Assembly (NCBI GenBank): GCA_934162265.1
Contig: CAKPHZ010000002.1
Coordinates: 6,703 to 70,702 of the forward strand
Direction of reading: 5' to 3'
DNA: 64,000 bases
Origin: an uncultured Bacilli bacterium
Lineage (GTDB): Bacteria > Bacillota_I > Bacilli_A > RF39 > UBA660
The stretch's first letter is position 1. Each line of letters opens with the position of its first letter. The translations under genes were made by a program, and so were the position numbers. A model generated the notes under the pieces. The model had not been told where the DNA came from. It searched no databases and saw only the letters and a list, made by a program, of their open reading frames with translations. This document shows positions 2,816 through 51,080 of the stretch, one piece after another.

Positions 2816-2838
2816 TTTGATTTTATTAGTAAACTAAA

Positions 2839-4829: not shown

Positions 4830-4884
4830 ATTTTCTTTCTTGAAAATACTTACATTTTCTTTTTCTTTATAAGGAGAATTGATA

Positions 4885-5334
4885 ATGGATAAGGATGTTT
4901 TTTATATGAAATTGGCGCTTAAAGAGGCAACTAATGCGTACTTTTTAGATGAGGTACCAATTGGTTGTGTAATTGTTTTTCATGATCAAGTTTTGGTTAG
5001 TACATATAATCGAAAAACGATCGATCAAATTGCAACTTCGCATGCTGAGATTTTAGCGATTAATGAGGCTTGTCGTCAATTAGGTAGTTGGTATTTGGAT
5101 GAATGTGTTTTATATACTACGGTTGAACCTTGTTTAATGTGTACTGGGGCAATTATTCAATCGAGAATAAAGAGAGTGGTTTATGGTTGTTCTAATCAAG
5201 ATTTTGGTTACCTTTCTCAGTTAAAAAATTCTAAAATAGAAGTTGTATCAGGAATATTAGAAGATGAATGTGTTTCTATTTTGCAAAATTTTTTTCAAAA
5301 AAAAAGAAAACAACATAAAGAAGAAGTTTCTTAA
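4885..5334 (+). CDS. tadA: tRNA-specific adenosine deaminase
   Basis: CDA-fold zinc motifs HAE...PCLMCTGA. AGGAG lies 8 nt upstream of the ATG at 4885; the track's TTG at 4879 is less likely. Confidence 0.85.
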   Translation: MDKDVFYMKLALKEATNAYFLDEVPIGCVIVFHDQVLVSTYNRKTIDQIATSHAEILAINEACRQLGSWYLDECVLYTTVEPCLMCTGAIIQSRIKRVVYGCSNQDFGYLSQLKNSKIEVVSGILEDECVSILQNFFQKKRKQHKEEVS

Positions 5335-5336
5335 GA

Positions 5337-6545: not shown

Positions 6546-6669
6546 TTTCTTCTTCCTTTCTGTTTTATTATTATAGCATGGAGTAATGGGAATGTAAATT
6601 ATGGAAATTTTGTATCTTTTTTTATCATTTCATGATATACTAGATTAGAATAGTATAGTAGGTGATAGG

Positions 6670-7596
6670 GTGGAAAAACTTTTTAAAACAATAGATGAAC
6701 AATTAGATATTTTAAAAGGAAAAGGGTTAATTATTGAAGATGAAGCTTTAGCTAGGGAAATTTTACTTCGTGAAAATTATTTTTTTATTAATGGATATCG
6801 CATTTTATTAATGAACTCTTATCGGGATAAAACTTTTGTTGTTGGAGCTACTTTTCGTGAACTTTATTCTATTTTTTTGTTTGATCGAAGTTTTCGAAAT
6901 ATTTTATTTAAAAACTTACTTATTGTTGAGAATCAATTAAAGTCTGTTATTTCTTATCAATTATCTAAAAAGTATGGTTATCGTGATAAAGATTATTTAA
7001 ATTCTAAAAATTTTACGATGGATAGAAATAAATCTAGAAGGGTAAAAGATGTTATTGAAAAAATGAAGCGTCAAATTCGGGTAAATGGGGCTCATCATAT
7101 GGCAACGATGCATTATATGAATAATTATGGTTATATTCCTTTATGGGTATTGGTAAAAGTTCTATCCTTTGGAATTGTGACGGAGTTATATTTGATTTTA
7201 AAACCAGAAGATCAAGTTGCGATTGCTGATATTTTTGGAATGAATACAAATTATTTAGAGAATTTTTTACCTATTTTATCTAACTATCGCAATTTGTGTG
7301 CTCATGAAGATATTGTTTATGAACATCGATCTGAGAATGTTATTTTAAATACTCCTTATCATGAAAAATTAGGTATTCCTAGAATGGATGACGAGTATAT
7401 TTATGGAAAAAATGATGTTTTTTCTGTAATGATTATGATGAAATATTTACTTCGTAGTGATGATTTTCGAATGATGATGAGAGAAATCGAGTATGAAATT
7501 GAAAAACTAGATGGGGCGATTGATTCTATTCCTATTGAAAAGATATTGGATCGAATGGGGATACCTGAAGATTATATGGATTTAGTAAATATGTAA
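6670..7596 (+). CDS. Abi_2 (AbiD/AbiF-like) abortive-infection family protein
   Basis: 308 aa with a GTG start 5 nt after AGGTGA. The layout (ENYFFINGYR, RNILF..L..VEN.LKS, NYRNLCAHED) matches the Abi-like PF07751 pattern from memory. Confidence 0.7.
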   Translation: MEKLFKTIDEQLDILKGKGLIIEDEALAREILLRENYFFINGYRILLMNSYRDKTFVVGATFRELYSIFLFDRSFRNILFKNLLIVENQLKSVISYQLSKKYGYRDKDYLNSKNFTMDRNKSRRVKDVIEKMKRQIRVNGAHHMATMHYMNNYGYIPLWVLVKVLSFGIVTELYLILKPEDQVAIADIFGMNTNYLENFLPILSNYRNLCAHEDIVYEHRSENVILNTPYHEKLGIPRMDDEYIYGKNDVFSVMIMMKYLLRSDDFRMMMREIEYEIEKLDGAIDSIPIEKILDRMGIPEDYMDLVNM

Positions 7597-7607
7597 GGAG
7601 GAGAAAG

Positions 7608-8705
7608 ATGAAAAAGAATAGTGTTAGAATTATTTTGATTATAGTAGTATTACTTTCTTTTATTAGTGGTTCTGTTGGAATGTATTTTGTTTCTTTATTG
7701 GGTGCAGATAATGTGAAGACAGTAATTTCAACAGGTAGTTCATCTTTAGAAGAGAAGGATACTATTTCTAAGGGAGTCGAGAATGTATATGATGCTGTTG
7801 TAGTTGTTGAAGGATTTTCTAATAATAAATTAGCTTCTACTGGTACAGGTTTTGTTTATAAAAATGGAAATGGGGTTTCATATATCATGACTAATCACCA
7901 TGTTGTTTCTGGCATGGATTCTGTAAAAGTTGTTTTAAGTGATAAAACAGTTTTAAAAGCACAAGTTCGTGGTAGCGAAGCTTATTCAGATATTGCTGTT
8001 TTAGCAGTTGATTCTAAATCAGTAAAATCTGTTGCTGTTATGGGAGATAGTGATAATCTAAAAGTAGGAGATACTGTATTTACAGTAGGGTCACCTGAGG
8101 GAGCAGATTATGCTGGTACAGTTACCAAAGGAATTTTATCTGGAAAAGATCGAATGGTTGCTGTTGCTCTTTCTAACGAATCTTCTTCGGATTACTATAT
8201 GAAAGTATTACAAACTGATGCTGCCATTAATCCAGGAAATAGTGGAGGTCCTTTATGTAATATTAATGGAGAGGTAATAGGAATTACTAATATGAAGTTA
8301 GTTGATTCTACAGTTGAAGGAATTGGTTTTGCAATTCCTATCGATGATGCTTTGTTTTATGCCTCTACTTTAGAAAAAGGGGGAACAATTTCTAGACCTT
8401 ACTTTGGAATAGGAATGTTAGATTTAAATAATAGTTATTATTTATGGAAAAGTGGTATTACTGTTCCTGATACTATTAAAGAAGGTGTAGTTGTTACTGA
8501 GGTTTCTTTGACTTCTCCAGCAGGATTCGCAGGATTAAAAAAAGGAGATATTATTCTTTCTATTGGAGGAGAAAAAGTAAAATCCATTGCCGAATTTCGT
8601 TATGTATTGTATAAGCATAAAGCAGGTGAAAAAGTAGCAGTGGAATTTTATCGAAATAATAAAATTAAAAAAGTTGAAGTTAAGTTAGGAACTTCTAAAA
8701 ATTAA
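7608..8705 (+). CDS. htrA: HtrA/DegP-family serine protease with C-terminal PDZ domain
   Basis: N-terminal TM anchor, a catalytic triad context (TNHHV, DIAVL, GNSGGP) and a PDZ-like tail. Confidence 0.85.
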   Translation: MKKNSVRIILIIVVLLSFISGSVGMYFVSLLGADNVKTVISTGSSSLEEKDTISKGVENVYDAVVVVEGFSNNKLASTGTGFVYKNGNGVSYIMTNHHVVSGMDSVKVVLSDKTVLKAQVRGSEAYSDIAVLAVDSKSVKSVAVMGDSDNLKVGDTVFTVGSPEGADYAGTVTKGILSGKDRMVAVALSNESSSDYYMKVLQTDAAINPGNSGGPLCNINGEVIGITNMKLVDSTVEGIGFAIPIDDALFYASTLEKGGTISRPYFGIGMLDLNNSYYLWKSGITVPDTIKEGVVVTEVSLTSPAGFAGLKKGDIILSIGGEKVKSIAEFRYVLYKHKAGEKVAVEFYRNNKIKKVEVKLGTSKN

Positions 8706-8783
8706 TAGTTAATTTTAATAAAATTTAAAGCTTTTATGTTACAATAATAGGGACTTAAGAAGTTAGGAAAGGAATGATTATTT

Positions 8784-9323
8784 ATGGAATTAAGAGGAAG
8801 TAAAACTGAACAAAATTTAATGACTGCTTTTGCTGGAGAAAGTCAAGCTCGTAATAAATATACTTATTTTGCTAGTAAGGCTAGAAAAGATGGTTATGAA
8901 CAAATCGCTGCTATTTTTGAGGAAACTGCAAATAATGAAAAAGAGCATGCTAAGATGTGGTTTAAAGAGTTAAATGGTGGTTCTATTCCTGATACTGCTG
9001 CAAATTTATTAGCTGCCGCTGAGGGAGAAAACTACGAATGGACAGATATGTATCAAGATTTTGCTAAGACTGCTAAAGAGGAAGGTTTTGATCGATTAGC
9101 TTATCTTTTTGAAGGTGTTGCACAGATAGAAAAGGAACATGAGGACAGATATCGTAAGTTACTTGAAAATGTTGAAGGTGGTTTAGTTTTCTCTAAAGAC
9201 GGAGATAAGATTTGGAAATGTCGCAATTGTGGACATATTGTTATTGGAAAGGAAGCTCCAAAAGTTTGTCCTATATGTGCTCATCCTCAAAGTTATTTTG
9301 AAATTAAAGCTGAAAATTACTAA
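8784..9323 (+). CDS. rbr: rubrerythrin
   Basis: Ferritin-like di-iron domain (EExxH repeats: [19 protein letters not shown]) plus a C-terminal rubredoxin CRNCGH...CPICAHP. Confidence 0.9.
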
Positions 9324-9353
9324 AATTAATGTTTACAAAAGCATTAATTTTTT
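9322..9353 (+). terminator. intrinsic terminator of rbr
   Basis: A 10-bp stem AAAATTAATG/CATTAATTTT followed by Ts, directly after the stop codon. Confidence 0.6.
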
Positions 9354-9505
9354 AAATTCTTTTAAATTTGGTGGATTTAACAAAAAGTATTCGTTATAAA
9401 ATTACTTAATATTAATTTGAATTTTTTAAAGAGTTATTTAGTTTTTTTTAAGTTTTAAGAAATAAAATATAATAAAATTACATCTAAAATTTAGATGTAA
9501 TTTTT

Positions 9506-11376
9506 GTGTGCAGGCATGGTATATAACTAGGTGGTGAAAGTCCACTATACACGTAAGTATCTGCGAAGTATTAGGGAAGCACAACGCATTAACGGTGATG
9601 TTAGGGCCTAAAGGAAGTGTGAAACAAAATCGTGGCTCAACGAACAGAAACTTGATACTAAGGATGCATAAACGGATGAGGTTACAAAACAAACTAAAGT
9701 CCAAAAGATACACGTAACTTTATGTAGTAAATCAAGTGAGTAAACGAGGAAAGTTATATGTCTTACCCTGGGAGGTCTTGTGGACAGTTAAGGAGAACCC
9801 TAGAAAGAAAACTGTTCGAAAAAGGTTTATCACAAGAAGTCAGCCGAGGTCATAGTACTAATTAATTATTAAGAAGGACTGAACAATTTATAGTGTTTTA
9901 GTACACATAATATTATGTTAGTTATAAATCAGAATAAATAAAAGGTAAATAAGTAAAACGTATTTTATGTATAAATCCTTAAAAGATAAATAACTAATGT
10001 TGAGATTAGAAAGGAAAGAACGAGTATGGAATTACTAGAAAAAGTCTTAGATGACAAGAACTTATTTGAAGCATATAAACAAGTGTATAAAAATAAAGGA
10101 GCAAGTGGAGTTGATGAAATTACTGTTGATGAACTTAGACACTATATGTATCTGCACAAAGAAGAAATCAAAGAACAAATAAGAAATAGAAAATATAAAC
10201 CTAGCCCAGTAAGAAGAGTATACATTCCAAAAGATAACGAAGATAAAAGAGGGTTAGGAATACCAACTGTGGTAGATAGAGTAATACAACAAGCAATAGT
10301 ACAAGTACTATCCCCAATATACGAAGAGCAATTTAGTAAAACAAGTTATGGATTTAGGCCTAAACGTTCATGTGAAATGGCCATCATTAAACTATTAGAA
10401 TATTTTAATGATGGCTATACTTGGATAGTAGATATTGATTTACAAAAATTCTTTGATACAGTATGCCATGATAAATTAATTTCCATAATCATGAAAACAA
10501 TTCATGACGGTGAATTAGTATCATTAATAAGAAAATATCTAGTAAGTGGAGTAATGGAAAATGGTGTAGTTAGTCCAACAAAGGTAGGGACACCACAAGG
10601 TGGTAATCTATCCTCACTACTATCTAATATCATGTTAAATGAATTAGACAAAGAACTTGAAAAAAGAGGTTTAAGGTTTACTCGATATGCGGACGACTGT
10701 ATAATTGTAGTACAAAGTGAAAAAGCAGCAAATAGAGTTATGAAGAATATAACAAAGTTTATAGAGAAGAAACTAGGATTAAAAGTTAATGCAGAAAAGA
10801 GCAAAGTAGCAAGACCAAATCAAATAAAATATTTAGGATTTGGATTTTACTATACAAAAACAGGTATAGTCAAACCAAAACCACATTTAAAATCGATTCA
10901 AAAGTTTAAAAGAAGAGTAAAACAACTTACCAAGAGAAGTTGTAGTATATATTTAAACGAAAGAATCATAAAATTAAATCAAGTCATAAGAGGATGGATA
11001 AATTATTTTAGAATTGCGGATATGAAAAATCAACTTTCAAATATTACAAGCCATCTAAATAGAAGAATAAGATGCATTATATGGAAGCAATGGAAAACAC
11101 CAAAGCATAGAATAAAATGTCTAATACAGTTAGGATTAGATAAGAACATGGCAAGGGCGTGTTCGTACGCTAGGAAAAGCTATTGGAGTACTAGTATGTG
11201 TTTTCCTATTCATAAGGCAATTTCTAATAAGCGATTACAACAAAAAGGTCTAGTGTTTCCATTAGACCATTACTTAAAAGTATATACTGCAATATAAATT
11301 GAACCGCCGTATACCGAACGGTACGTACGGTGGTGTAAGAGGGACAAATTTACAAACTATTGTAAATTTTCTCTAC
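9506..11376 (+). mobile_element. ORF-containing bacterial group II intron; the 3' boundary is approximate
   Basis: The 5' end is GTGTG at 9506, followed by GGTGAAAGTCC and GTCAGCCGAGG-type domain I strings. The intron-encoded protein sits in domain IV. A canonical domain V (CCGCCGTATACC-GAAC-GGTACGTACGGTGG, 11304-11334) is followed by a domain VI-like hairpin ending ...CTCTAC near 11376. Confidence 0.8.
10026..11297 (+). CDS. group II intron reverse transcriptase/maturase, no endonuclease domain
   Basis: 423 aa with RT motifs (RRVYIPK, GLGIPTVVDRVIQQA, TPQGGNLSSLLSN, YADD) and maturase X motif RGWINYF. The short C-terminus lacks an HNH domain. Confidence 0.9.
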   Translation: MELLEKVLDDKNLFEAYKQVYKNKGASGVDEITVDELRHYMYLHKEEIKEQIRNRKYKPSPVRRVYIPKDNEDKRGLGIPTVVDRVIQQAIVQVLSPIYEEQFSKTSYGFRPKRSCEMAIIKLLEYFNDGYTWIVDIDLQKFFDTVCHDKLISIIMKTIHDGELVSLIRKYLVSGVMENGVVSPTKVGTPQGGNLSSLLSNIMLNELDKELEKRGLRFTRYADDCIIVVQSEKAANRVMKNITKFIEKKLGLKVNAEKSKVARPNQIKYLGFGFYYTKTGIVKPKPHLKSIQKFKRRVKQLTKRSCSIYLNERIIKLNQVIRGWINYFRIADMKNQLSNITSHLNRRIRCIIWKQWKTPKHRIKCLIQLGLDKNMARACSYARKSYWSTSMCFPIHKAISNKRLQQKGLVFPLDHYLKVYTAI

Positions 11377-16329: not shown

Positions 16330-16570
16330 TTTTATAAAATCATGTGAAAGAGACGGTATTTAAATTCTAATTTAAAGAGAGTTTGCTACTGGTGAAAAGC
16401 AGATAACAAGAATTAAATATGAATCACTCTGGAATGTGAACTTTTGAATAGAGTAGAAAGTATCCGGGAATTGTATCCCGTTATCCAATGAAGTTGCACA
16501 AAATTTTTGTGAATTAAGGTGGTACCGCGTTTTTAAGCGTCCTTAAGGAATAAAATTTTTGTGCTTTTTA
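16330..16570 (+). promoter_or_regulatory. T-box riboswitch leader, Ile (AUC) specifier
   Basis: Stem I elements are present (AGAGA, AGAGAG, distal CTGGTGAAAAGCAG). The specifier loop reads ..UAUGA-AUC-A before the closing helix (AUC at 16423-16425). The T-box sequence AATTAAGGTGGTACCGCG is at 16512-16529. The terminator arms are 16496-16519 and 16541-16564, followed by a T-run. Confidence 0.85.
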
Positions 16571-32858: not shown

Positions 32859-33299
32859 ATGTTTGATATTATTAATAATTATCATGAAGAGGTATTAGAG
32901 TTAGATATTTTGGAAAAGTATGTGACATATGTTGTAGAAAAGTTGAAGTTAGAGAAGGCTATATTTAATTTTATATTAGTTGATGAAGAGGAGATTCATG
33001 AATTAAATAAAACTTATCGTAAAGTAGATAGACCTACTGATGTGATTACTTTTGCTTTAGAGGATGGAGATGATTTTCAAAATCCTGAGTTTAGGACTTT
33101 GGGAGATGTTTATATTTGTGTTCCTATAGCGTATAAGCAAGCAGAGATGTATGGACATTCTAGAATTCGAGAAATTTGCTTTCTAGCAACACATGGGATT
33201 TTACATTTGCTTGGCTATGACCATATGGAAGAGGAAGAAGAGAAAGTGATGTTTTCTTTACAAGAGGAGTTGTTAAAGGGTTATGAGATTAATCGGTAA
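32859..33299 (+). CDS. ybeY: rRNA maturation endoribonuclease YbeY
   Basis: Zinc motif HGILHLLGYDH. The ATG at 32859 is preceded by GAGG; the track's TTG at 32847 is unlikely. Confidence 0.9.
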   Translation: MFDIINNYHEEVLELDILEKYVTYVVEKLKLEKAIFNFILVDEEEIHELNKTYRKVDRPTDVITFALEDGDDFQNPEFRTLGDVYICVPIAYKQAEMYGHSRIREICFLATHGILHLLGYDHMEEEEEKVMFSLQEELLKGYEINR

Positions 33300-33693
33300 A
33301 ATGAAAGTGAAAAAATTATTAAAGAGTCAAGGTCGGGCAAAGTTTAGAGAAAGTGCATCTCACGCGATGGATGGGATTACTTATACAGTAAGTCATGAGA
33401 GAAATTTTAGAATAGAACTTGCTGCTGCTTGTTTGGTTACGCTCCTTAGTTATTTTTTGAAAGTTAGTGTAGTAGAGTGGTGTATTTTGCTTCTTACTAT
33501 TTCTCTTGTTTTAGTATTAGAGATGGTTAATACGGCGATTGAGAGAACTGTTGATTTGGTGACTAAAGATTATTATGAGCTTGCTAAAAACGCAAAAGAT
33601 GTTGCAGCAGGAGCAGTGCTTGTTGCAAGTATGTTTTCTGTTGTTCTTGGGATATTGATTTTTTTACCTAAGATTATTAGTTTATTAAAGTAA
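33283..33693 (+). CDS. dgkA: diacylglycerol/undecaprenol kinase
   Basis: Three TM helices plus the ERNFRIE and NTAIE motifs. An alternative start lies at 33301. Confidence 0.8.
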   Translation: MRLIGKMKVKKLLKSQGRAKFRESASHAMDGITYTVSHERNFRIELAAACLVTLLSYFLKVSVVEWCILLLTISLVLVLEMVNTAIERTVDLVTKDYYELAKNAKDVAAGAVLVASMFSVVLGILIFLPKIISLLK

Positions 33694-33711
33694 AATACTT
33701 ATAAGTATTTT
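33692..33711. terminator. perfect 20-nt palindrome AAAATACTTATAAGTATTTT after dgkA (terminator-like)
   Basis: Perfect 10+10 nt inverted repeat overlapping the dgkA stop, followed by TCTTTTC. Confidence 0.6.
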
Positions 33712-33752
33712 TCTTTTCAGATTAGAATTTTGATAGTTTAAGGAGATGTGAG

Positions 33753-33974
33753 ATGAAAAAGTTAAGTGGAAGAGTAGTTGAAGTTTTTATTCCAGATAAT
33801 ATGAATCAAGAAGTAGGGTTTAGAGTAGAAACTAATGAAGGAATAAAAGAAATTATAGAAGAACAAGATGAATATAATGCTAAAATATTAAGAGAAGATA
33901 ATGTAATTGTTACAGAACAAATTATTGATGGAAAATATTTTATTGATATAGAATTAGGGGAAAAGTATGAATAA
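33753..33974 (+). CDS. hypothetical small acidic protein (73 aa), translationally coupled to the helicase
   Basis: AAGGAG RBS upstream. Its last 8 nt overlap the start of the next gene. Confidence 0.55.
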   Translation: MKKLSGRVVEVFIPDNMNQEVGFRVETNEGIKEIIEEQDEYNAKILREDNVIVTEQIIDGKYFIDIELGEKYE

Positions 33975-36723
33975 TTCACTAAATTTATATCCTCATAATT
34001 TAGATGGATATAATGATGCTAAAAAAGCTTATCAAGAAGGAAAAAAGATTGTCAGTGAAGTTCGGGCAACGGGAACTGGAAAAAGTTATATTAACCTACA
34101 ATTTGCTTTAGATAATCAAGATAAAAAAGGGATTTATGTTGTTCCTAGTTTATCTATTATTGAACATTTAAAAGAAATTGTTAAAGAAAATTCAAATGTT
34201 AGTTTAAATGATTTTTCTCATGTTGATTTTAGAACTTATCAAAGTTTTGTTAATATGAGTTATGATGAGATAAAAAATTTAGCGTGTGATTTTTTGATTG
34301 TTGATGAATTACATCATTTGAATGGTCCAGTATGGGAGAATAGAATTTCAAAATTGATTGAAACACATCCTGATATTAAGGTGCTTGGGACAACAGCTTA
34401 TACCGTAGTTTCAAGAGGAACTTCTTATGAGAGGGATATGGCTTTGTCTGGTGGAAATGAAATATTTTCTGATTCAATAGTTAGTCGCTATGATTTATGT
34501 GATGCAATAATTGATGGTGTTTTACCAAAACCAATTTATAAAAGTGCTTATATTCATTTATCTAGTAAATTATCTGATATTGAAAGAATTTTAGAAAGTA
34601 GTCATTTAACTACAAAGGAATATCAAGAATATCAACTTATTTTAGATGATTTAAAGAGAAAAATTCATGAAGCACCAACTATTGCGGATGTTTTAAAGAA
34701 AAATTTAAAAAAAGATGGAAAGTATTATTATTTTTGCCCTGTTAAATCAGAAGAAGGAATAAATGATATTGAAACAATAAAAGAAAAAATACTGAGTGAT
34801 TTGAAACCAAAATTTCAAGAAGAAGATATTGTTTTTTATACTACAACTTCAGAAATGGGAGAATTAGGAAAGAAAAATCGAGATGCTTTTTATCATGATA
34901 AAACATTAGATGGACAAGATTGTTCAAATAAACTTCGTATTATGTTTGCAATTAATCAATATAATGAAGGGGTACATGCTCCTGGTGTTGATGGTGTAAT
35001 TGAGGGCAGAATGACAAATTCTGATATTGTCTTTTTTGAACATATTGGTAGATCTTTAGCTGTAAGAGGAGATAATCAGAAAAGAGAAGAAGAATTAGAA
35101 AAATATTCTTATGAGGAATTATTACAAATGTGTCATGATAGAGATATTTTAGTCAAAGAAAATATTTCTAAAGAAGAGATGATAGAAAAATTACTTTCTC
35201 CTCTTATTATTGATTTAACTTGTAATTATGAATGGATTAAAGAGTTAGAAGATAATTTAAAGAATAGATTAAAAGAAAATACAGGAAGAAAAAATAATAC
35301 TTATCAAAGAAGAAAACTTATTGATGCATCATTTGATATAGAAGTGGAAAATATTGATTTATTTTCTAGTTTAATGGAATTAAAAAATAGATTGAATAAT
35401 TCTTGGAATAGAATGTATGAATATGCTCGTATTTATTATGAACATCATGGAAATTTAGAGGTTCCCCAAAGGTTTAAAACAAATAATGGATTTGAATATG
35501 ATGAAGAGGGAAAAATAAAATTAGGTGCTTGGATAGCTAGACAAAGAAGTAGTACGTTACCAGAGAGTGAACAAGGAAGACTGCTATCTCAAATAGGTAT
35601 GCGTTTTTTCAATAAAAATAGTACATTAAGTTGGGAAGAAATGTATGAATATGCCCGTATTTATTATGAACATCATAAAAGTTTAGAAATTCCCCGAAGT
35701 TTTAAAACAAATAATGGATTTGAATATGATGAAAAAGGAATTGTAAATTTAGGTATCTGGATAGTTTATCAAAGAAAAACTGTGTCTCGAGAGAGTGAAC
35801 GGGGAAAGTTGTTATCACAAATAGGGATGCGTTTTGAGAGTAAAAAAAGTACACTTTCTTGGGAAGAAATGTTTGAGTATGCGTGTCAATATTATGAACA
35901 TCATGGAAATTTGGAGGTTCCCCAAAAGTTTAAAACGAATAATGGATTTGAATATGAGGAACAAGGAAAAATTCCTTTAGGAAGTTGGATAGCTAAACAA
36001 AGAATTAGGACGTTACCAGAGAGTGAACGCGGTCAGTTGCTTTTGAAAATAGGCATGCGTTTTGAGAGTAAAAAAAGTACACTTAGTTGGGAAGAAATGT
36101 ATGAGTATGCCTGTATTTATTATAAGCATTGTGGACATTTAGAAGTTCCTGTTAAGTTTAAAACAAATAATGGTTGGGAAGAAGATGATTCGGGAAAAAT
36201 AAATTTAGGTGCTTGGGTAGCTAAACAAAGAATTAGGACGTTACCAGAGAGTGAACGAGGAAGATTGTTATCTCAAATAGGGATGCGTTTTGAGAGTAAA
36301 AATAGTACATTAAGTTGGGAAGAAATGTATGAGTATGCTTGTATTTATTACCAACGCCATGGAAATTTAGAAGTTTTTGCTAAGTTTAAAACAAATAATG
36401 GCTGGGAAGAAGATGAGTTGGGAAAAATAAACTTAGGTACTTGGGTAGCCACTCAAAAGCAATTATACCAAAAAAAAGAAATGTCTGAGGAACAAATTAT
36501 TTTACTAGAGAATATTGGAATGAAGTTGATAAGTGAAAGAGTAGATAATAAGCTACAGATAGAAGAAATAACAGAAAAGAATACAAGAAAAAAACAAATA
36601 GAATTGTTAAATAGAACAAAGAGTTTGTTAAATCATATTGGTAATCAAGATTTTGGAAGTAAAGAAGATGTAGATAGGGTAAATCAGAAGTTTGTAGATG
36701 AGTTAAATCGTAAATCTAGATAA
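33967..36723 (+). CDS. SF2 DExH-box helicase fused to five tandem helicase-associated (HA, PF03457-like) repeats
   Basis: Motif I ATGTGKS, motif II VDELHH, TTAY, motif VI-like FEHIGRSL, then a K/E-rich linker. After that come 5 x 76 aa of W(E/N)(E/R)M(Y/F)EYA..YY..HG.LEVP..FKTNNG(F/W)E.D..GKI.LG.W(I/V)A.QR...LPESERG.LLSQIGMRF. Confidence 0.8.
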   Translation: MNNSLNLYPHNLDGYNDAKKAYQEGKKIVSEVRATGTGKSYINLQFALDNQDKKGIYVVPSLSIIEHLKEIVKENSNVSLNDFSHVDFRTYQSFVNMSYDEIKNLACDFLIVDELHHLNGPVWENRISKLIETHPDIKVLGTTAYTVVSRGTSYERDMALSGGNEIFSDSIVSRYDLCDAIIDGVLPKPIYKSAYIHLSSKLSDIERILESSHLTTKEYQEYQLILDDLKRKIHEAPTIADVLKKNLKKDGKYYYFCPVKSEEGINDIETIKEKILSDLKPKFQEEDIVFYTTTSEMGELGKKNRDAFYHDKTLDGQDCSNKLRIMFAINQYNEGVHAPGVDGVIEGRMTNSDIVFFEHIGRSLAVRGDNQKREEELEKYSYEELLQMCHDRDILVKENISKEEMIEKLLSPLIIDLTCNYEWIKELEDNLKNRLKENTGRKNNTYQRRKLIDASFDIEVENIDLFSSLMELKNRLNNSWNRMYEYARIYYEHHGNLEVPQRFKTNNGFEYDEEGKIKLGAWIARQRSSTLPESEQGRLLSQIGMRFFNKNSTLSWEEMYEYARIYYEHHKSLEIPRSFKTNNGFEYDEKGIVNLGIWIVYQRKTVSRESERGKLLSQIGMRFESKKSTLSWEEMFEYACQYYEHHGNLEVPQKFKTNNGFEYEEQGKIPLGSWIAKQRIRTLPESERGQLLLKIGMRFESKKSTLSWEEMYEYACIYYKHCGHLEVPVKFKTNNGWEEDDSGKINLGAWVAKQRIRTLPESERGRLLSQIGMRFESKNSTLSWEEMYEYACIYYQRHGNLEVFAKFKTNNGWEEDELGKINLGTWVATQKQLYQKKEMSEEQIILLENIGMKLISERVDNKLQIEEITEKNTRKKQIELLNRTKSLLNHIGNQDFGSKEDVDRVNQKFVDELNRKSR
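35401..36528 (+). repeat. tandem 228-bp coding repeats x5 (HA modules)
   Basis: Units start at 35401, 35629, 35857, 36085 and 36313, an exact 228-nt period. They are roughly 75-85% identical at DNA level by eye. Confidence 0.85.
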
Positions 36724-36738
36724 GACTTTAATTATAGG

Positions 36739-36758
36739 AAAATACTTATCAGTATTTT
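36739..36758. terminator. near-palindrome AAAATACTTATCAGTATTTT after the helicase gene
   Basis: 19 of 20 nt are identical to the palindrome at 33692-33711. Confidence 0.6.
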
Positions 36759-36784
36759 TAGTGTATAGAAAGAAGGGGTAAATA

Positions 36785-37183
36785 ATGAAAGAAAAGTTAC
36801 AAAGTTTATTAAAAAATTCATATAGTAAATATTATCATTATCCAGTAGCGTCTGTTATTGTGATGAAAGATGGTGTAGAGTTTAGTGGGGTTAACGTAGA
36901 AACTTCTTCTCCTGCTAGTGGAATTTGTGCTGAGAGAAATGCCTTATATAGTGCGATTACTAATGGTTATACTAAGGGAGATGTTAAGGAAATTCATGTG
37001 ATGAGTACAACAGAAAATGATTGTTTTCCATGTTTTATTTGTAGACATGCTTTAAGTGATTTATGTGATAAAGAGGTTAAAGTATTTTCTCATACTTTTA
37101 GTGATAGTAGAATTGTTATGCATACGATTGAAGAATTATGCCCATATCCTTTTGGGGATGATAGTATGAAAGAGGAGAAGTAA
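36785..37183 (+). CDS. cdd: cytidine deaminase
   Basis: Zinc motifs CAERNA and PCFICR; 132 aa. Confidence 0.9.
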   Translation: MKEKLQSLLKNSYSKYYHYPVASVIVMKDGVEFSGVNVETSSPASGICAERNALYSAITNGYTKGDVKEIHVMSTTENDCFPCFICRHALSDLCDKEVKVFSHTFSDSRIVMHTIEELCPYPFGDDSMKEEK

Positions 37184-38076
37184 TGAAAAGTGGATTTGTT
37201 AGTATAGTTGGTCGACCTAATGTTGGGAAAAGTACTCTTTTAAACGCAATTATTGGAAAGAAAATTGCTATTACTTCAAATACTGCTCAAACTACTAGAA
37301 ATATGATTCAAGGTATTTATCATGGAGATGATGTACAAATTATTTTTGTGGATACACCTGGTATTCATAAGCCTCATAATAAATTAGGACAAGTATTAAA
37401 TAAACAAGCTTATTATAGTTTAAATGATGTTGATGTCATTTTGTTTTTGGTTGATGTTACAGAAAAGTTGGGGAATGGAGATAAGTTTATTTTAGAAAAG
37501 TTAAAAGAAAATGATGTTCCTGTTATTTTAGTTTTAAATAAAATGGATAAAATTACTTATTTAGAACTTTTGCCTAAGATAGAAGAGTATAAGGATTTAT
37601 ATCATTTTAGTGAGATTATTCCTGTATCTGCTTATAAAAAGAAAAACTTAGATGATTTAATTCAAACTGTTAGTAAATATTTAAAAGATGATATTAAATA
37701 TTATGATGAAAATACTATTACTAATGTTAGTGAGAATTTTTCTGTATCTGAGTTAATTCGAGAAAAAGTTTTATATCATACTAAAGAGGAAGTTCCTCAT
37801 TCTGTTGCTTGTATTGTGGATGAAATTAGCGAGGATAAATATAGTATTCGAGTAATTGCTAGTTTAATCGTGGATAGAGAAAATTTAAAGAAGATTTTGA
37901 TTGGGAAGAATGGTTCTATGATTAAAAGGATTGGAATGGAAGCAAGACGTGATATAGAAGAATTGTTAGGGAAAAAAGTTTATTTGGATTTACAAGTAAA
38001 AGTGATTCCGAATTGGCGTGATAAGGATAGTTTTTTATTTAGACAACTTGGATATGAAGATATTTCTCTTGATTAG
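37183..38076 (+). CDS. era: GTPase Era
   Basis: G1 GRPNVGKST, G3 DTPG, G4 NKMD, and a KH domain at the C-terminus. TAATG overlap with cdd. Confidence 0.95.
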   Translation: MKSGFVSIVGRPNVGKSTLLNAIIGKKIAITSNTAQTTRNMIQGIYHGDDVQIIFVDTPGIHKPHNKLGQVLNKQAYYSLNDVDVILFLVDVTEKLGNGDKFILEKLKENDVPVILVLNKMDKITYLELLPKIEEYKDLYHFSEIIPVSAYKKKNLDDLIQTVSKYLKDDIKYYDENTITNVSENFSVSELIREKVLYHTKEEVPHSVACIVDEISEDKYSIRVIASLIVDRENLKKILIGKNGSMIKRIGMEARRDIEELLGKKVYLDLQVKVIPNWRDKDSFLFRQLGYEDISLD

Positions 38077-38123: not shown

Positions 38124-38249
38124 ATGAATAGAGAAGATTTATGGAATTTATTTAAGATGACTGGGAAAATTGAATATTATTTAAAGTATAAGAAAGACAA
38201 AGAAAGTAGGACTTGCCATGATAAGAAAAGTAACGGGGATAGTGATTAG
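38124..38249 (+). CDS. yqzL: YqzL-like small protein (41 aa); not in the ORF track
   Basis: MNREDLWNLFKMTGKIEYYLKYKKDKE.. fits the YqzL pattern W..F..TG.I..YL.YK. It sits in the conserved position between era and recO, with GGTGA 7 nt upstream. The 3' end overlaps the recO start in another frame. Confidence 0.55.
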   Translation: MNREDLWNLFKMTGKIEYYLKYKKDKESRTCHDKKSNGDSD

Positions 38250-38967
38250 TACAGTAGACTACAAAGAAAGTAGTAAGATTGTTAATATTTTTACAGAAGA
38301 TGAGGGAATTATTGGGGTTCTTTCTAAAGGATGTAAGACAATGAAAAGCAAACTTCGAGCAGTATCTACACCGCTATCTCAAGGGACTTTTTATTTAAGA
38401 CAGTATGGATCAGGAATGTCATTACTAACAGAAGTCGATTTAGAAATCTCTTATAAAGAAATACGAAAAGATATTTTTAAACAAAATTATGCTTTATTTT
38501 TATTAGACCTTGCTAGTCAAGTTTATCGTCATGGTAAGCAAAAGCAAATTTATTCTTTATTAATTTCTGCTTTAGCAAAGATTGAGGAAGGCTATGATGC
38601 TGAAGTCATTACTGATATTGTAGAATTACAGTTACTTAAGTATCTTGGTATTCAGCCAGAACTTTCTTGCTGTGTTAGTTGTGGTAATAAGGAAGATATT
38701 ATTACGATTTCTAGTTATAAGGGAGGTTATCTTTGTAAGAGATGTGTTGGTAGGGAATTTGTTTATTCTTTAAAGATGATGAAATTAATTAGAATGTTAT
38801 CTTTAGTAGATTTGGATAAGATTAAACGGATTGATATTCGGGATGAAGTAAAGAAAGAAATATCTATTTTTATCGATGACTACTATGATCGTTATGCTGG
38901 TCTTTATTTGAAGAGTAAAGAATTTTTAAAAAATTATTCCAAATTGATGGAAGTCACTGACTTATAA
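38218..38967 (+). CDS. recO: DNA repair protein RecO
   Basis: 249 aa with an OB-fold N-terminus and zinc motif CVSCG...CKRC. It sits in the conserved position after era. Confidence 0.85.
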   Translation: MIRKVTGIVISTVDYKESSKIVNIFTEDEGIIGVLSKGCKTMKSKLRAVSTPLSQGTFYLRQYGSGMSLLTEVDLEISYKEIRKDIFKQNYALFLLDLASQVYRHGKQKQIYSLLISALAKIEEGYDAEVITDIVELQLLKYLGIQPELSCCVSCGNKEDIITISSYKGGYLCKRCVGREFVYSLKMMKLIRMLSLVDLDKIKRIDIRDEVKKEISIFIDDYYDRYAGLYLKSKEFLKNYSKLMEVTDL

Positions 38968-39001
38968 TACTTATATAGAATAAAACTGTATAAGTATTTT
39001 T
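38966..39001 (+). terminator. intrinsic terminator of recO
   Basis: 10-bp arms AATACTTATA/TATAAGTATT followed by a T-run. Confidence 0.6.
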
Positions 39002-39111: not shown

Positions 39112-39717
39112 ATGATGTTAACAAATGATGAGATTTTTTTAGATTATTTAATTGCAAATGGCTTTCAACCACAAAATTATAAAAATATTTTGGAACTTAT
39201 TCAATCTGTTCCTAATTCGATTTCTAAATATTTAAAAGATTATCGACAATTTTTATTATCAGGAAAAATAGATTATTCAGAGTTAGTATCTTATCAAATA
39301 AAAGGAGCCAATGGTTATCTTAATAAAAGAGGAAGAATAGTTGTTCCAACTTCTGAAGCAGGAGATGAATATTTTAAGAATTTGGCAAAAAAATTAAAAA
39401 TTCGTAGTAATCAAAAAATTCCTTATTTTTATCCCATTATCAGTGAGTTTGATGCATTAATTGCTTATTATGATCTAACACTAGATCAACAAGTTATCGT
39501 TGACCAAATTGTAAACGCCAGTATTCCTTTAATAGAAAATAATTATATTGGTTTTATTGCTGATACAAAAGATCAAGACCAAATTACTAAAACTATAGCT
39601 ATTTTCTCTATATTATTAGAAGTAATTAAATCTAATTCTAGGCAAGACTATACAATGATTCATGATACAGTAAGTAACCAGGGAAAAGAATTATACTTAA
39701 TTAAAAAAAGTAGATAA
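39112..39717 (+). CDS. hypothetical protein (201 aa)
   Basis: The ORF has a strong RBS and its own promoter. No recognisable family. Confidence 0.6.
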   Translation: MMLTNDEIFLDYLIANGFQPQNYKNILELIQSVPNSISKYLKDYRQFLLSGKIDYSELVSYQIKGANGYLNKRGRIVVPTSEAGDEYFKNLAKKLKIRSNQKIPYFYPIISEFDALIAYYDLTLDQQVIVDQIVNASIPLIENNYIGFIADTKDQDQITKTIAIFSILLEVIKSNSRQDYTMIHDTVSNQGKELYLIKKSR

Positions 39718-39832
39718 AAAAGACCAAATGCTAAATTAAACAAGAAAAAAGAATATTGTTTATATATAATTTACTTCCTTGAAATATTTCATAGAGTAAT
39801 ATAAAATGGAAATATGGAAAGGAAGATAAAAA

Positions 39833-40396
39833 ATGCAATATAATTATCCAATAAAATATTCAATAATGCCAATTTGTGCATACGTTGGAGAGAATTTAAG
39901 TAACAATCACACATTAAATATTTATAATTCCATTGTAAGGTATGGATATAAACATTTAGAAGTTATTGGCTATGTTGTTTCTAAATGTTATATCCTTAGT
40001 GAGATTAATTCTTTTTTATCAGATGGAACAACAAATACCTCTTATAGAGTAGTTTTTCCTTATCAAAAAGTTAATGATAAAGGAAGAGAAGCTTATCGTA
40101 AAGTAGAACCTACAAGATATAATGCACAAATAGGAGAGATATACGATACTGTAGAAGAAGCAGTTTTAGCTAAAAATGAATTAAACCAAATCATTTTATC
40201 AGAAGAATTATCAAGAATTCCAAGAAATAAAAACTACCAAAAAAATATTGAATTCATTCAAGAAGCATTTTCAGAAAGGATAGAGAAACTTAATAAATTA
40301 GAAGTAGAAATTGAAGCAAATACCAAAGAAATGATTGTATCTGAAAATCAAGGACAAGATTTATCGATATTTCAAAAAAAATTGAAAAAGCAATAA
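39833..40396 (+). CDS. hypothetical protein (187 aa) with a C-terminal coiled coil
   Basis: The ORF has a GGAAAGGAAG RBS. The segment YRVVFPYQ..GREAYRK...IGEIYDTVEEAVLAKNELN is faintly AP2-like (three strands plus a helix), which is a very weak hint. Confidence 0.55.
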   Translation: MQYNYPIKYSIMPICAYVGENLSNNHTLNIYNSIVRYGYKHLEVIGYVVSKCYILSEINSFLSDGTTNTSYRVVFPYQKVNDKGREAYRKVEPTRYNAQIGEIYDTVEEAVLAKNELNQIILSEELSRIPRNKNYQKNIEFIQEAFSERIEKLNKLEVEIEANTKEMIVSENQGQDLSIFQKKLKKQ

Positions 40397-40408
40397 TTTT
40401 GTAGTAGA

Positions 40409-41299
40409 ATGAATTCAGAAAGGATGAGTAAGATGAAAAGTAAAGTATATTTTATGAAAGAAATCACTTCAGATAATCTAGTAAAAATATATCATGCATT
40501 AAACAAAGAATTACCAGGAAAAGTAGCAATTAAGGTTCATTCAGGAGAAGCTGGTAACCAAAATTATCTACGGCCTGAATTTCTACAACAAATCGTAAAT
40601 GAAGTAAAAGGGACAATTGTAGAATGCAATACTGCTTATGATGGAGCAAGAAATACAACAGAAAAACATCTTCAATTGATGAAAGAACACGAATGGAACA
40701 AATACTTTAAAGTAGATATTTTAGATAGCGAAGGTCCTGATATGGAACTAGATATTCCAAGTGGAAAAGTAATAAAAAAAGATTATGTAGGAAAAAATAT
40801 AAAAAATTATGATTCATGTTTAGTATTATCTCACTTTAAGGGACATCCTATGGGAGGATATGGAGGAGCATTAAAACAATTATCCATTGGCTTCGCCTCT
40901 TCTTATGGAAAAGCTTACATCCATGGTGCTGGAAAACCAGAAGAAAAGTGGACTGCTGATCATGATAAATTTTTGGAATCAATGGCAGATGCGGCTTCTT
41001 CAGTACATCAATATTTTAAAGGAAATATTTGTTATATTAATATTATGTGTAATATGTCAGTAGATTGCGACTGTTGTGCTGTTGCAGAAGATCCTTGTAT
41101 GGAAGATATTGGCATCTTAGCGTCCACTGATCCAATCGCTTTAGACCAAGCTTGTATTGATTTAGTTTATCAATCAAAAGATCCAGGAAAAGATCATCTA
41201 GTTGAGAGAATAGAATCGAGAAATGGAAGACATACTATAGATATAGCCTCTACACTAGGATTTGGATCAAAAGACTATGAACTTATTGAAATCAAATAA
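40409..41299 (+). CDS. DUF362-family protein (putative Fe-S protein)
   Basis: KVAIKVHSGEAGN..LRPEF...V and a cysteine cluster MCNMSVDCDCCA. The more likely start is the ATG at 40433, 9 nt after AAGGA. Confidence 0.5.
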   Translation: MNSERMSKMKSKVYFMKEITSDNLVKIYHALNKELPGKVAIKVHSGEAGNQNYLRPEFLQQIVNEVKGTIVECNTAYDGARNTTEKHLQLMKEHEWNKYFKVDILDSEGPDMELDIPSGKVIKKDYVGKNIKNYDSCLVLSHFKGHPMGGYGGALKQLSIGFASSYGKAYIHGAGKPEEKWTADHDKFLESMADAASSVHQYFKGNICYINIMCNMSVDCDCCAVAEDPCMEDIGILASTDPIALDQACIDLVYQSKDPGKDHLVERIESRNGRHTIDIASTLGFGSKDYELIEIK

Positions 41300-41301
41300 A
41301 T

Positions 41302-41349
41302 AAAGAGATAGTTTTCAACTTAAAGTTTAGTTGATTCAACTATCTCTTT
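41302..41349 (+). terminator. intrinsic terminator
   Basis: 12-bp arms AAAGAGATAGTT/AACTATCTCTTT followed by TCTT. Confidence 0.6.
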
Positions 41350-41402
41350 CTTGCTTTTCTACCACAAATAAGATATGCTAAACTGGTAAAGGAGAGAAAA
41401 CA

Positions 41403-43379
41403 ATGAAAAAGAAAAAAAGAATTATCTTCTTAAGTATAATATTAATTGTTTTAATTTTTACATTTACCTATGTAAATTTAGAAGAAAAAAATAAAAATAC
41501 TAAAGAAGTCAAAGTAGTAAGTAGTTTAATAGAAAAACAAGAAAAAAGAGAAAAATCATTTAAAATAAAAGGATATACCGTAGAAAATCCAAATATCATT
41601 TTAGATCCTTATCAAAATTCTCCATTAACAGCACTTGTTTTATTTGAAACCAAAAATGAAGTAGCACCTAAAGTAACCATAGAAGGAAAAGATGAATTAA
41701 GTACTTTCACTCATCAATTCAAAAAAACAAAACAACACTATCTACCAATCTATGGATTATATGCAAATAAAGAGAATAAAGTAAAAATTGAATATACAGA
41801 AAATGGTAAAAAAATTTCTCAAGAAATTAAAATAAAAACAAAAGAACTACCTAAAAATATGGTATTACCAACTTCAGTAACAGCAGATAAGGAAAACTTA
41901 ACCAATGATTTATATTTTTATACTCCATCTAGTGATGGATATACTGCAGCCTATGATGTAAATGGAGATGTTCGCTGGTACTTATCTAATAATGCTCTAT
42001 GGAAGGTAGATAAATTAAAAAATGGAAATTTATTACTGAGTACAGAAAGATTAATCAATAACCCATATTATATGACTGGTTTATATGAAATGAACATGTT
42101 AGGAAAAATTATTACTGAATATAGCTTAAAAGGTGGCTATCACCACGATTATTATGAAATGGAAAATGGAAACCTTTTAATCGCTAGTGATGATTTCTAT
42201 AATGATGATGGAACAGTAGAAGACTATATTGTTGAATTAGATAGAAAAACAGGAAAAATTGTTAACACCTTTGATTTAAAAGACATCTTAAATATGCAAG
42301 ATGGAAAAAGTGAAAACTGGACAGCGTACGATTGGTTTCATAACAATTCTGTTTGGTATGATAAGAAAACAAATTCCATTACTTTATCTGGTCGCCATCA
42401 AGATGCAGTAGTTAATATTGATTACAAAACAAAAAAATTAAATTGGATTATTGGAGATTCTACCAATTGGAGCAAAGAATATCAAAAATACTTTTTCAAA
42501 AAAGTAGGAGATACAGACTTTGAATGGCAATGGAGTCAACATGCCGCAATGATTACTCCAGAAGGATATGTTTTTATCTTTGACAATGGAAATAATAAGT
42601 CTAAAATCAAAGAAAATTATGTATCTGCTGAAAATAGTTACTCTAGAGGAGTAATGTATAAAATTGATACCAAAAAAATGACCATTGAACAAGTCTTTGA
42701 ATACGGAAAAGAACGAGGAAGTGAATTCTATTCCCCTTATATTTCTGATGTCGATTACTTAGAAAAAAATCATTACATTATTCATTCAGGAGGAATTGTC
42801 TATGTTGATGGAAAAAACTCTAACCAACCAGCAGGATTTTCCAAAGACACTACTCTTGTAAGTGATACAGTAGAATTACTTAATAATAAAGTAATTTTTG
42901 AAATAAAATTTCCAACAAATAATTATCGTGTTGAAAAAATGAGTCTATATAACAAGAATGAAGAAGTGAATTTGAACTCTCCTAAAATATTAGGAAGTCT
43001 AGGAAAAACAAAAATTGATAAAACAGAATTTAAATTACAAATGCAGGCAAACAAAAAAGATAAAAATTATCATTCCCATGAAATTAGTTTTCAAAAAGAA
43101 AAAGACCGTTTAGTATTTAAAGGAACATTTAAAAAGGGAACAGATGTTAAAGTATTATTGTACAAAAACTTAAAAGTAAATACTTATAATATTAGTATTA
43201 GTAAAAAACCTTATACTGCTCTTTGTGTAGATGTATTTACGGAAGAAGAAAATGAAAAAGGACTTACCGTAACAAGATATATTAACCAAGAAGGATTAAA
43301 AGGAACTTACTCTATTTATTTAAGTATAGATGGAAAAATATATAACACAGAAGAATATGTTAATTTTTCACAAGAATAG
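41403..43379 (+). CDS. aryl-sulfate sulfotransferase (ASST family), membrane-anchored or secreted
   Basis: N-terminal TM anchor. ASST beta-propeller strings: YDVNGDVRWY, KNGNLLLS, GGYHHDYYEMENGNLLIAS, YDWFHNNSVWYD...SGRHQDAVVNIDYKT.KLNWIIG, WSQHAAMITPEG.VFIFDNGNN. Confidence 0.8.
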   Translation: MKKKKRIIFLSIILIVLIFTFTYVNLEEKNKNTKEVKVVSSLIEKQEKREKSFKIKGYTVENPNIILDPYQNSPLTALVLFETKNEVAPKVTIEGKDELSTFTHQFKKTKQHYLPIYGLYANKENKVKIEYTENGKKISQEIKIKTKELPKNMVLPTSVTADKENLTNDLYFYTPSSDGYTAAYDVNGDVRWYLSNNALWKVDKLKNGNLLLSTERLINNPYYMTGLYEMNMLGKIITEYSLKGGYHHDYYEMENGNLLIASDDFYNDDGTVEDYIVELDRKTGKIVNTFDLKDILNMQDGKSENWTAYDWFHNNSVWYDKKTNSITLSGRHQDAVVNIDYKTKKLNWIIGDSTNWSKEYQKYFFKKVGDTDFEWQWSQHAAMITPEGYVFIFDNGNNKSKIKENYVSAENSYSRGVMYKIDTKKMTIEQVFEYGKERGSEFYSPYISDVDYLEKNHYIIHSGGIVYVDGKNSNQPAGFSKDTTLVSDTVELLNNKVIFEIKFPTNNYRVEKMSLYNKNEEVNLNSPKILGSLGKTKIDKTEFKLQMQANKKDKNYHSHEISFQKEKDRLVFKGTFKKGTDVKVLLYKNLKVNTYNISISKKPYTALCVDVFTEEENEKGLTVTRYINQEGLKGTYSIYLSIDGKIYNTEEYVNFSQE

Positions 43380-50854: not shown

Positions 50855-51080
50855 TTGAAAGCTGTGAAGAAGAAGAGTAAAATATATTCAAATCATAGAG
50901 AGTTAATGGTTGGTGTAAATTAACATTTGAAATATTTGAATGAAGCTTTGAAGCAGAATAATGTATACAAGTTATTCCGTTAATCGCGTTAAGATATGGA
51001 GATGTATGGTTAATTTAATTAACTATATAATTAAGGTGGTACCACGATAGATTCGTCCTTATTGGATGAGTCTATTTTTT
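50855..51080 (+). promoter_or_regulatory. T-box riboswitch leader, probable Glu (GAA) specifier
   Basis: GAAG-AAGAGUA specifier-loop 5' side, AGAGAG plus GGTTGGTGTAA distal elements. The 3' loop GAAU-GAA-G lies next to the closing helix (GAA at 50942-50944). T-box sequence AATTAAGGTGGTACCACG at 51029-51046. The terminator ATAGATTCGTCC/GGATGAGTCTAT plus T-run ends at 51080. Confidence 0.8.

Follow-up and report, generated by a model that had tools for sequence, protein, structure and literature searches.

Helicases that join an N-terminal ResIII-type superfamily 2 (SF2) motor to tandem helicase-associated (HA) domains (PF03457) are annotated in thousands of genomes, and no tested function was found for them. 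Two described examples, both named "Helicase associated domain protein" by PGAP and both uncharacterized, come from Ruminococcus albus 7 pRUMAL01 (WP_013483605.1) and Aneurinibacillus (WP_272443845.1) and carry 8 to 11 HA modules. Here we describe a protein of the same build, equally uncharacterized, that is encoded in a 64,000-nucleotide stretch of DNA (the window) from an uncultured member of the gut Bacilli (28% G+C). In the window, a small open reading frame (ORF) of 73 amino acids (aa) and a helicase ORF of 918 aa form a cassette between dgkA and cdd. Our analysis demonstrates that this cassette is a functional, non-essential, two-gene accessory operon inserted in the ybeY-recO operon. 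The helicase is a member of the known, uncharacterized HA-domain SF2 architecture (ResIII plus PF03457), to which the window's sub-family adds an obligatory partner with an oligonucleotide/oligosaccharide-binding (OB) fold. What is new is this obligatory, unannotated OB-fold partner, together with a turnover of alleles that takes place without a recombinase inside an essential operon.

The window protein departs from its Ruminococcus and Aneurinibacillus counterparts in several respects. Its motor is only 28 to 29% identical to theirs; their Helicase_C domain is recognizable, whereas that of the window protein is missed by Pfam; and their upstream regions have no annotated small OB gene. The Aneurinibacillus protein also has an extra N-terminal extension of 150 aa, which was considered as an OB domain or a nuclease and to which Pfam and PDB searches assigned nothing. 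On the R. albus megaplasmid pRUMAL01, two HA helicase genes adjoin each other downstream of sugar-nucleotide genes (L098, positions 4998 to 11029). The annotation of such helicases in Firmicutes, Ruminococcus albus and Aneurinibacillus being examples, makes an initial annotation of the window too narrow where it placed HA domains mostly in actinobacterial and eukaryotic proteins.

For the HA domain itself, a nuclear magnetic resonance (NMR) structure is available from Bacteroides vulgatus (BVU_0683; Mills 2013, cited as reference 64 in PMC12191111), the title of which says that DNA binding is indicated. Going by that title, the earlier statement that HA domains have no established function is outdated. 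BVU_0683 belongs to the same family, PF03457, and as titled is a single domain, whereas the window protein has a variable array; its structure was not detected by sequence from the window HA modules in PDB searches. Helicases that combine COG4889 with HA domains are reported to be frequent in acr-aca2 operons, and HA domains to occur near retrons (PMC13551039); fusions of a PLD nuclease to HA domains are noted in PMC12191111. Both cases place HA domains on proteins found where mobile elements and hosts are in conflict. Their motor or nuclease partners differ from the window's, however, and the organisms appear to differ as well; no OB partner is described for them in these texts, and the shared homology is known for the HA domain only.

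Insertion, history and distribution of the cassette

A scan anchored on Era, with one genome per species, yielded 80 loci, which were screened by tblastn. In distant relatives, ybeY, with or without dgkA and cdd, is followed by era and recO, and nothing is inserted among them. The cassette was absent from three outgroup loci: in L014 and L016 (Era 79% and 76% identical, respectively) the dgkA stop abuts the ribosome-binding site of cdd, and in L028 (Era 69%) the spacer is unrelated. A locus of a sister species, L013 (contig CAKPBH010000019.1), has an empty site in which the right hairpin is intact and the left repeat is an eroded copy. The proposal that two genes had been inserted into the operon was thus borne out by the three outgroups and by the empty site, and the synteny comparison, in which L013, L014, L016 and L028 lack the cassette, showed that orthologues do not occupy this position in all relatives. 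Both cassette genes are under purifying selection, with ratios of nonsynonymous to synonymous divergence (dN/dS) of 0.24 to 0.35 compared to 0.05 to 0.18 for most housekeeping neighbors.

Together with L012 and L089, L013 makes up a single sister-species cluster, whose flanks are mostly 94 to 98% identical to one another and 70 to 88% identical to the window. L089 carries its own divergent cassette, and L012 carries one of the window type. Between the window and L089, synonymous divergence (dS) was 0.59 to 0.78 in the cassette and 0.52 to 1.4 in the flanks; because the cassette value lies within the range of the flanks, the cassette appears to predate the split of the two species. We infer that it entered the dgkA-cdd spacer before that split and that the repeat duplication arose at insertion. 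Between the window and L012, dS was 0.05 to 0.29 in the cassette versus 0.41 to 1.4 in the flanks, and the tract of high identity starts at the dgkA 3′ end and stops roughly halfway through era. L012 acquired its cassette recently through homologous recombination, the crossovers lying in the conserved genes dgkA and era. L013, for its part, has probably lost its cassette.

Within the window's own species, the cassette was found in all 10 listed contexts (identical Cdd protein). In L124, also of this species, the helicase core has a dS of 0.47 to the window, compared to 0.03 for the small ORF and 0.07 to 0.23 for the flanks; the L124 helicase is a deep allele, either kept in the species or brought in by import. 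Only one close locus came out of a metagenome scan that used Cdd as its anchor. The locus amounts to a natural experiment: closely related gut bacteria have, at a single site, alleles that are empty, old, imported or resized, and function is testable by allele association. These alleles also indicate that an accessory gene pair can live in an essential operon and cross species by ordinary homologous recombination in conserved flanks.

As a separate observation, the L124 contig (positions 1 to 6455) assembles as three or more tandem cassettes that precede cdd, joined by a hybrid junction in which the helicase stop is followed by the repeat and then by the leader. The copies are 100% identical over 1.8 kb, covering leader, small ORF and core, and differ in the HA array and tail.

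The pair is not confined to this operon. It was found in at least five unrelated chromosomal contexts in gut Bacilli, at one fixed site per lineage: between dgkA and cdd (the window, L001, L012 and L089); between a penicillin-binding protein (PBP) gene and a mraY-like gene, the fixed site in a very common species with 1686 collection blocks; between Flg_new and a C39-ABC transporter; in a block of hypothetical genes; and beside Band_7, in a remote member that shares 42% identity with the window in its helicase core. In every context examined, the small gene lies directly upstream of the HA helicase gene and overlaps its start (by 8 to 11 nucleotides [nt] where the junction was read), and the pairing persists down to that 42% helicase identity. 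Terminator hairpins flank the pair in the three other contexts that were read, with −10-like boxes upstream in two of the three. The co-occurrence of the two genes at so many unrelated sites, along with these hairpins, agrees with the earlier description of an autonomous module. No description of a pairing between an OB protein and an HA helicase was found in the literature.

Several further observations concern these other contexts. In some lineages, a third gene of 103 to 106 aa follows directly after the helicase (L090, 9072 to 9392; L091, 9749 to 10060; L095, 10582 to 10893; also L096 and L097). It gave no Pfam or PADLOC match, and a search for a homologue in the window found none. In L005, which belongs to the lineage with the cassette between PBP and mraY, Abi_2 and AbiEi/AbiEii genes lie 2 to 7 kb upstream, with the PBP gene in between (738 to 5721). 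The region upstream of the cassette at this PBP-mraY site differs among strains L092 to L094.

At the dgkA-cdd site, the cassette is bracketed by two 32-nt direct repeats that are 88% identical, and the near-identical palindromes reported in the initial annotation form their cores. The suggestion that the dgkA terminator had been duplicated is likewise upheld, as the right-hand repeat is a copy of the last dgkA codons plus the hairpin. At 0 to 1 mismatch, the palindromes had two matches only in 64 kb, against 0.02 expected. As RNA hairpins they are weak (left, −6.7 kcal/mol, z −1.9; right, −6.6 kcal/mol, z −1.2). The arm core ATACTTAT/ATAAGTAT is also found in the recO terminator (approximately 38966 to 38998), whose hairpin exceeds theirs in length and strength (−13.2 kcal/mol). 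An earlier caveat, that the repeats might simply be the common terminator type of this genome, therefore holds insofar as the arm core recurs at recO; as a genome-wide terminator type the palindrome was rejected, since two clean copies and one related recO hairpin were all that was found. The 8-bp stem of the left hairpin is kept in L001, L012, L089 and L124 with different loops, and in L124 the right repeat carries left-hand-type sequence.

One reading of these features, that the cassette is a self-mobilizing element or its remnant with the palindromic ends as recombination sites, would accommodate the palindromic cores of the flanking repeats, the different sites in different lineages and the L124 junction from helicase end to leader, which could represent tandem copies or a circle. 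The repeats of the form AAAATACT...AGTATTTT, however, are confined to the dgkA-cdd site, and the flanks of the cassette in other lineages are unrelated to them. Because the AAAATACT palindrome is missing from cassettes in other lineages, the palindromes were rejected as mobile-element ends and are better viewed as a property of the dgkA-cdd site. Moreover, no integrase or transposase gene was found when the cassette and the ORFs between 28.9 and 41.3 kb were examined, in agreement with the initial annotation, and the site is fixed within each species. A scan of IMG/VR with the helicase core gave no relatives, a phage collection gave one match at 26% identity, and plasmids gave only relatives at 22 to 29% identity; the cassette itself was not found on these phage or plasmid records. 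Its G+C content is native (28.7% versus 27.9% for the window). With no recombinase, native composition and purifying selection, the earlier idea of a domesticated mobile-element remnant finds no support, and homologous recombination in the flanking genes accounts for the observed spread. We regard a self-mobilizing element as highly unlikely; a recombinase would not be needed for the history of the insertion site, nor for import, loss or resizing of the array.

Helicase, HA array and OB-fold partner

Pfam assigned ResIII to helicase residues 6 to 144 (E 3.5e-9, above the gathering cutoff), and the protein matched the DNA helicase family PHROG_16 (E 9e-13). The motifs that had been read from the translation (ATGTGKS, VDELHH, TTAY and FEHIGRSL) are all found in it, and key motif residues, including GTGKS and DELHH, are invariant among 23 helicase homologues. 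An AlphaFold2 (AF2) model (predicted local distance difference test [pLDDT] score of 72) places RecA1 and RecA2 first, then an acidic helical linker, five HA modules of three helices each and a tail that is basic and helical. The assignment of an SF2 core, a K/E-rich linker and five HA modules was thereby confirmed, the core and modules by Pfam (ResIII and PF03457) and the linker in the model. Helicase_C (PF00271) gave no Pfam match at E≤0.01, yet the model has a RecA2-like alpha/beta domain with motif VI at residues 190 to 368, and Foldseek aligns approximately 450 columns of the helicase to two-domain helicases. Searches with the whole helicase returned no PDB sequence match at E≤1 and no NCBIfam match.

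The HA modules were detected in five stretches (E 8e-66, 218.7 bits versus a cutoff of 28.4; Pfam), and the five 228-nt repeats that encode them are 78 to 83% identical to one another in DNA. A PDB search with a profile of the five modules gave no match at E≤1. When HA modules were counted by hidden Markov model (HMM) in the 120 closest helicase homologues, 3 to 13 were found per protein, with protein length stepping in parallel. The count also varies between strains within a single species: helicase lengths of 839, 842, 918 or 1071 aa occur among strains with identical Cdd protein. The array probably changes its length through unequal crossing-over.

This variability bears on assembly as well. 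Metagenome contigs L009 to L011 and L119 to L123 stop inside the HA array just upstream of cdd, and because many contigs of the window's species end within it, the array is a recurrent assembly breakpoint. The breakage of metagenome contigs by a variable HA array matters for the assembly of abundant uncultured gut Bacilli.

Structural comparison of the motor with Foldseek gave E. coli RadD as the best match (7r7j, E 1.6e-7; further RadD structures are 8h5y and 6jde), followed by the motor of the Type ISP restriction enzyme LlaBIII (4xqk, 2.6e-7) and then by RecQ5, Chd1, XPB and RapA. RadD acts in DNA repair as an accessory ATPase, in cooperation with the single-stranded DNA-binding protein (SSB), which has an OB fold. 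Like the window motor, it is an SF2 protein, but the two are 16% identical, RadD has no HA array, and its partner is the essential cellular SSB rather than a dedicated 73-aa acidic OB protein. With no PDB sequence match at E≤1, 16% identity and a C terminus made up of the HA array, the window helicase does not fall within the RadD family.

The main rival to the explanation favored below takes this match as its starting point: the pair would be a lineage-specific helper in DNA repair or replication restart, composed of a RadD-like SF2 ATPase and a dedicated SSB-like OB partner and tethered to the chromosome by HA modules, which would make it a semi-core factor of genome maintenance rather than of conflict. 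In keeping with it, RadD is the best structural match, the partner has an OB fold, recO lies in the same operon, no effector domain is present, and the cassette shows purifying selection and native composition. It is also carried by every sampled strain of the window's species, and another very common species has it at a fixed site. Against these points, the RadD match is of generic SF2 quality, with a Type ISP restriction motor scoring nearly equally; the recO neighborhood is specific to this lineage, the pair lying elsewhere in others; the OB protein is acidic and has no SSB-family match; and absence from one close relative, cross-species allele exchange, deep alleles and a range of 3 to 13 HA modules are atypical for repair genes. 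A repair helper seems to us rather unlikely.

The motor comparison also bears on the suggestion, prompted by the position of the cassette between ybeY and era, that the protein is an RNA helicase recruited to ribosome maturation. The operon does contain ribosome-biogenesis genes, and SF2 DExH proteins include RNA helicases. The operon context is lineage specific, however, close relatives and outgroups manage without the cassette, the motor is nearest to DNA translocases, and the HA domain is reported to bind DNA, as indicated by the title cited in PMC12191111. We hold a ribosomal role to be very improbable.

Restriction systems offer a further comparison. The window helicase has two weak matches in PADLOC, the better of which is to a Type IV restriction motor (SauUSI-type mREase_IV, 1.1e-6, residues 321 to 365) and the other to Cas3c. 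The distant HA helicases match mREase_IV more strongly (1e-17) and also match PbeA. No full-length match to PADLOC-DB v2 was obtained for the helicase, the mREase_IV match covering 45 residues, and none at all for the small protein; the same was true of the L005 relative. Neither Pfam nor the AF2 model, in which linker and tail are helical, shows a nuclease, methyltransferase or target-recognition domain in the window protein, a difference from the restriction enzymes, and Pfam found no nuclease domain in either cassette protein. With no nuclease domain in helicase or operon, the cassette does not correspond to a restriction enzyme of Type I, III, ISP or IV.

The small protein has a net charge of −9 and a pI of 4.4. 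Its AF2 model (pLDDT 90.3) is a five-strand barrel (strands at residues 2 to 12, 20 to 27, 30 to 37, 50 to 58 and 61 to 68) with a short turn joining strands 3 and 4, a predicted topology that agrees with the OB barrel. Foldseek returned generic OB folds (RPA, SSB, Trbp111 and HIN; TMq of approximately 0.6) with no match at E≤0.001, and viral structures gave generic OB folds only. The protein had no match in four libraries (Pfam, NCBIfam, PHROG and PADLOC), and in Pfam and NCBIfam it could not be assigned by sequence to a named OB family (SSB, RPA, CSD or S1), SSB-family matches being absent. Its family falls into 854 clusters when grouped at 90% identity and into 142 when grouped at 50%, with most members 70 to 97 aa long, and dN/dS of the small ORF was 0.11 to 0.30 in three of five informative comparisons. 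The OB fold of the small protein is predicted with confidence, and its family is unannotated. In view of the net charge of −9, nucleic-acid binding by this protein is doubtful.

The 8-nt overlap of the two reading frames, noted previously, is real, and because of it translation of the helicase is probably coupled to that of the small ORF; the 8- to 11-nt overlaps in the other contexts and a Shine-Dalgarno-like sequence inside the 3′ tail of the small ORF fit such coupling. A small acidic gene that comes first and overlaps a large second one is also the classic layout of a toxin-antitoxin system, and with conserved coupling and a strictly conserved pairing it could point to an addiction pair, in which a helicase harmful when unrestrained is neutralized by the small protein and the pair is thereby helped to persist in an essential operon. 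Being acidic, the OB protein could act as a nucleic-acid mimic in the motor groove. Gene order and overlap would fit a Type II system, but the small protein has an OB fold instead of an antitoxin-type DNA-binding fold, and the helicase matches no known toxin family and has no PADLOC match of that kind. Furthermore, L013 lacks the cassette with no trace of a retained small gene, and a 735-aa fusion protein, P0335, in which an OB domain (residues 1 to 75) is followed by a degenerate motor remnant and five HA modules, keeps the OB domain although the remnant has no Walker A motif. An addiction pair is thus improbable, and it is less likely than a repair helper, as are the mobile-element and RNA-helicase readings.

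Proposed role of the pair

The overall explanation that we favor, and consider on balance probable, is that of an accessory OB-fold and HA-helicase operon that tracks DNA, with a lean toward conflict or surveillance. That leaning, toward a role against foreign DNA rather than in core housekeeping, is offered more tentatively, as a possibility; it derives from the presence/absence polymorphism, the turnover of alleles across species and the variation in repeat number. The conflict-type relatives (the mREase_IV motor, PbeA, acr-aca operons and PLD-HA fusions) may, by analogy, be counted on the same side.

Under the favored explanation, the cassette would be transcribed by read-through from ybeY-dgkA across the weak hairpin. 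The HA array would hold the enzyme on double-stranded DNA, with a reach set by the number of modules, and the motor would use ATP to translocate along DNA or to remodel it. The OB subunit would serve as a stoichiometric partner or gate of the motor; made in step with it, this subunit might capture exposed single strands, or it might occupy or gate the nucleic-acid site of the motor.

A number of points weigh against this explanation or parts of it. The helicase and its partner have no nuclease or other effector domain and no full-length PADLOC or NCBIfam match, and the neighbors are mostly housekeeping genes rather than a defense island. Presence in 10 of 10 listed contexts of the window's species, along with the fixed site in a very common species, gives the cassette a near-core look, and dN/dS shows no overall positive selection. 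A simple single-strand DNA binder would not be expected to be as strongly acidic as the OB protein. Attenuation by the hairpins, which are weak (z −1.2 to −1.9), is putative. Two points touch the population evidence: the L013 sequence alone is also compatible with a lineage that never had a cassette, which limits what that evidence can carry, and the tandem array in L124, a short-read contig at 4.5x with exact repeats of 1.8 kb, may be mis-assembled. The lack of an effector domain, the lack of a defense signature and the fixation of the cassette in well-sampled species keep a role in conflict tentative.

At its most speculative, the favored explanation could be extended to a previously unrecognized system of two components, or three in some lineages, that guards the genome against foreign DNA and is widespread among uncultured gut Bacilli. 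HA modules would then serve, through their number, as a tunable sensor of DNA length or features, the acidic OB protein would gate the motor, and alleles would be kept diverse by cross-species exchange at fixed sites. We view this extension as doubtful.

Layout of the locus and neighboring genes

Features of the dgkA-recO region are listed in Table 1. The coordinates given initially for the 73- and 918-aa ORFs, between the dgkA stop and the cdd start, were confirmed, as were the neighbors, which Pfam identified as VanZ, YbeY, DAGK_prokar, cytidine deaminase, Era and RecO. A promoter scan of the cassette leader listed no consensus promoter on the + strand between 33690 and 33750.

Table 1. Features of the cassette and its flanks (positions in the window)
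Feature	Position	Strand	Evidence or remarks
dgkA, upstream flank	33283-33693	+	Pfam DAGK_prokar; crossover arm in the L012 recombination import
Left 32-nt direct repeat	33681-33712	+	Last 11 nt of dgkA, stop codon and hairpin AAAATACTTATAAGTATTTT (33692-33711); T-rich run after
Cassette leader	33713-33752	+	Shine-Dalgarno sequence AAGGAG at 33740-33745
Small acidic ORF with predicted OB fold, 73 aa	33753-33974	+	ORF translation and AF2 model
Helicase ORF, 918 aa	33967-36723	+	ORF translation and Pfam
SF2 motor	33967-35070	+	RecA1, aa 1-145 (motif I GTGKS, II DELHH, III TAY); RecA2, aa 190-368 (motif VI HIGRSLAVRG)
K/E-rich helical linker, aa 369-477, net charge −7	35071-35397	+	AF2 model, composition
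Five 76-aa HA (PF03457) modules	35398-36537	+	228-nt tandem DNA repeats, Pfam
Basic helical C-terminal tail, aa 858-918, pI 9.5, plus stop codon	36538-36723	+	AF2 model, composition
Right 32-nt direct repeat	36728-36759	+	Copy of dgkA 3′ end and hairpin AAAATACTTATCAGTATTTT (36739-36758); 26 nt upstream of the cdd start codon
cdd and era, downstream flank	36785-38076	+	Pfam; L012 import tract ends inside era at approximately 37700
cdd	36785-37183	+	Pfam cytidine deaminase
recO	38218-38967		Pfam RecO

Beyond the cassette, recO is 64 to 66% identical (dS of approximately 1.4) between the two sister species (window versus L012, L013 and L089), and the adjacent era is 90 to 92% identical; the era/recO border is a sharp mosaic boundary between them. 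Group II intron domains were located at 9589 to 9879, 24 kb upstream of the cassette (Rfam group-II-D1D4-3, 118.5 bits; D1D4-1, 45.1 bits), and two T-box leaders scored above the gathering cutoff (16335 to 16547 and 50855 to 51063). Downstream of recO, the content of the segment at 39112 to 43379 varies between strains of the window's species (compared with L001, 13340 to 18985, and L114, 7293 to 10399). In the window, this segment holds ORFs of 201 and 187 aa with no family match, a DUF362 gene and an arylsulfotransferase gene, and in other strains its place is taken by a glycosyltransferase and dTDP-rhamnose gene cluster.

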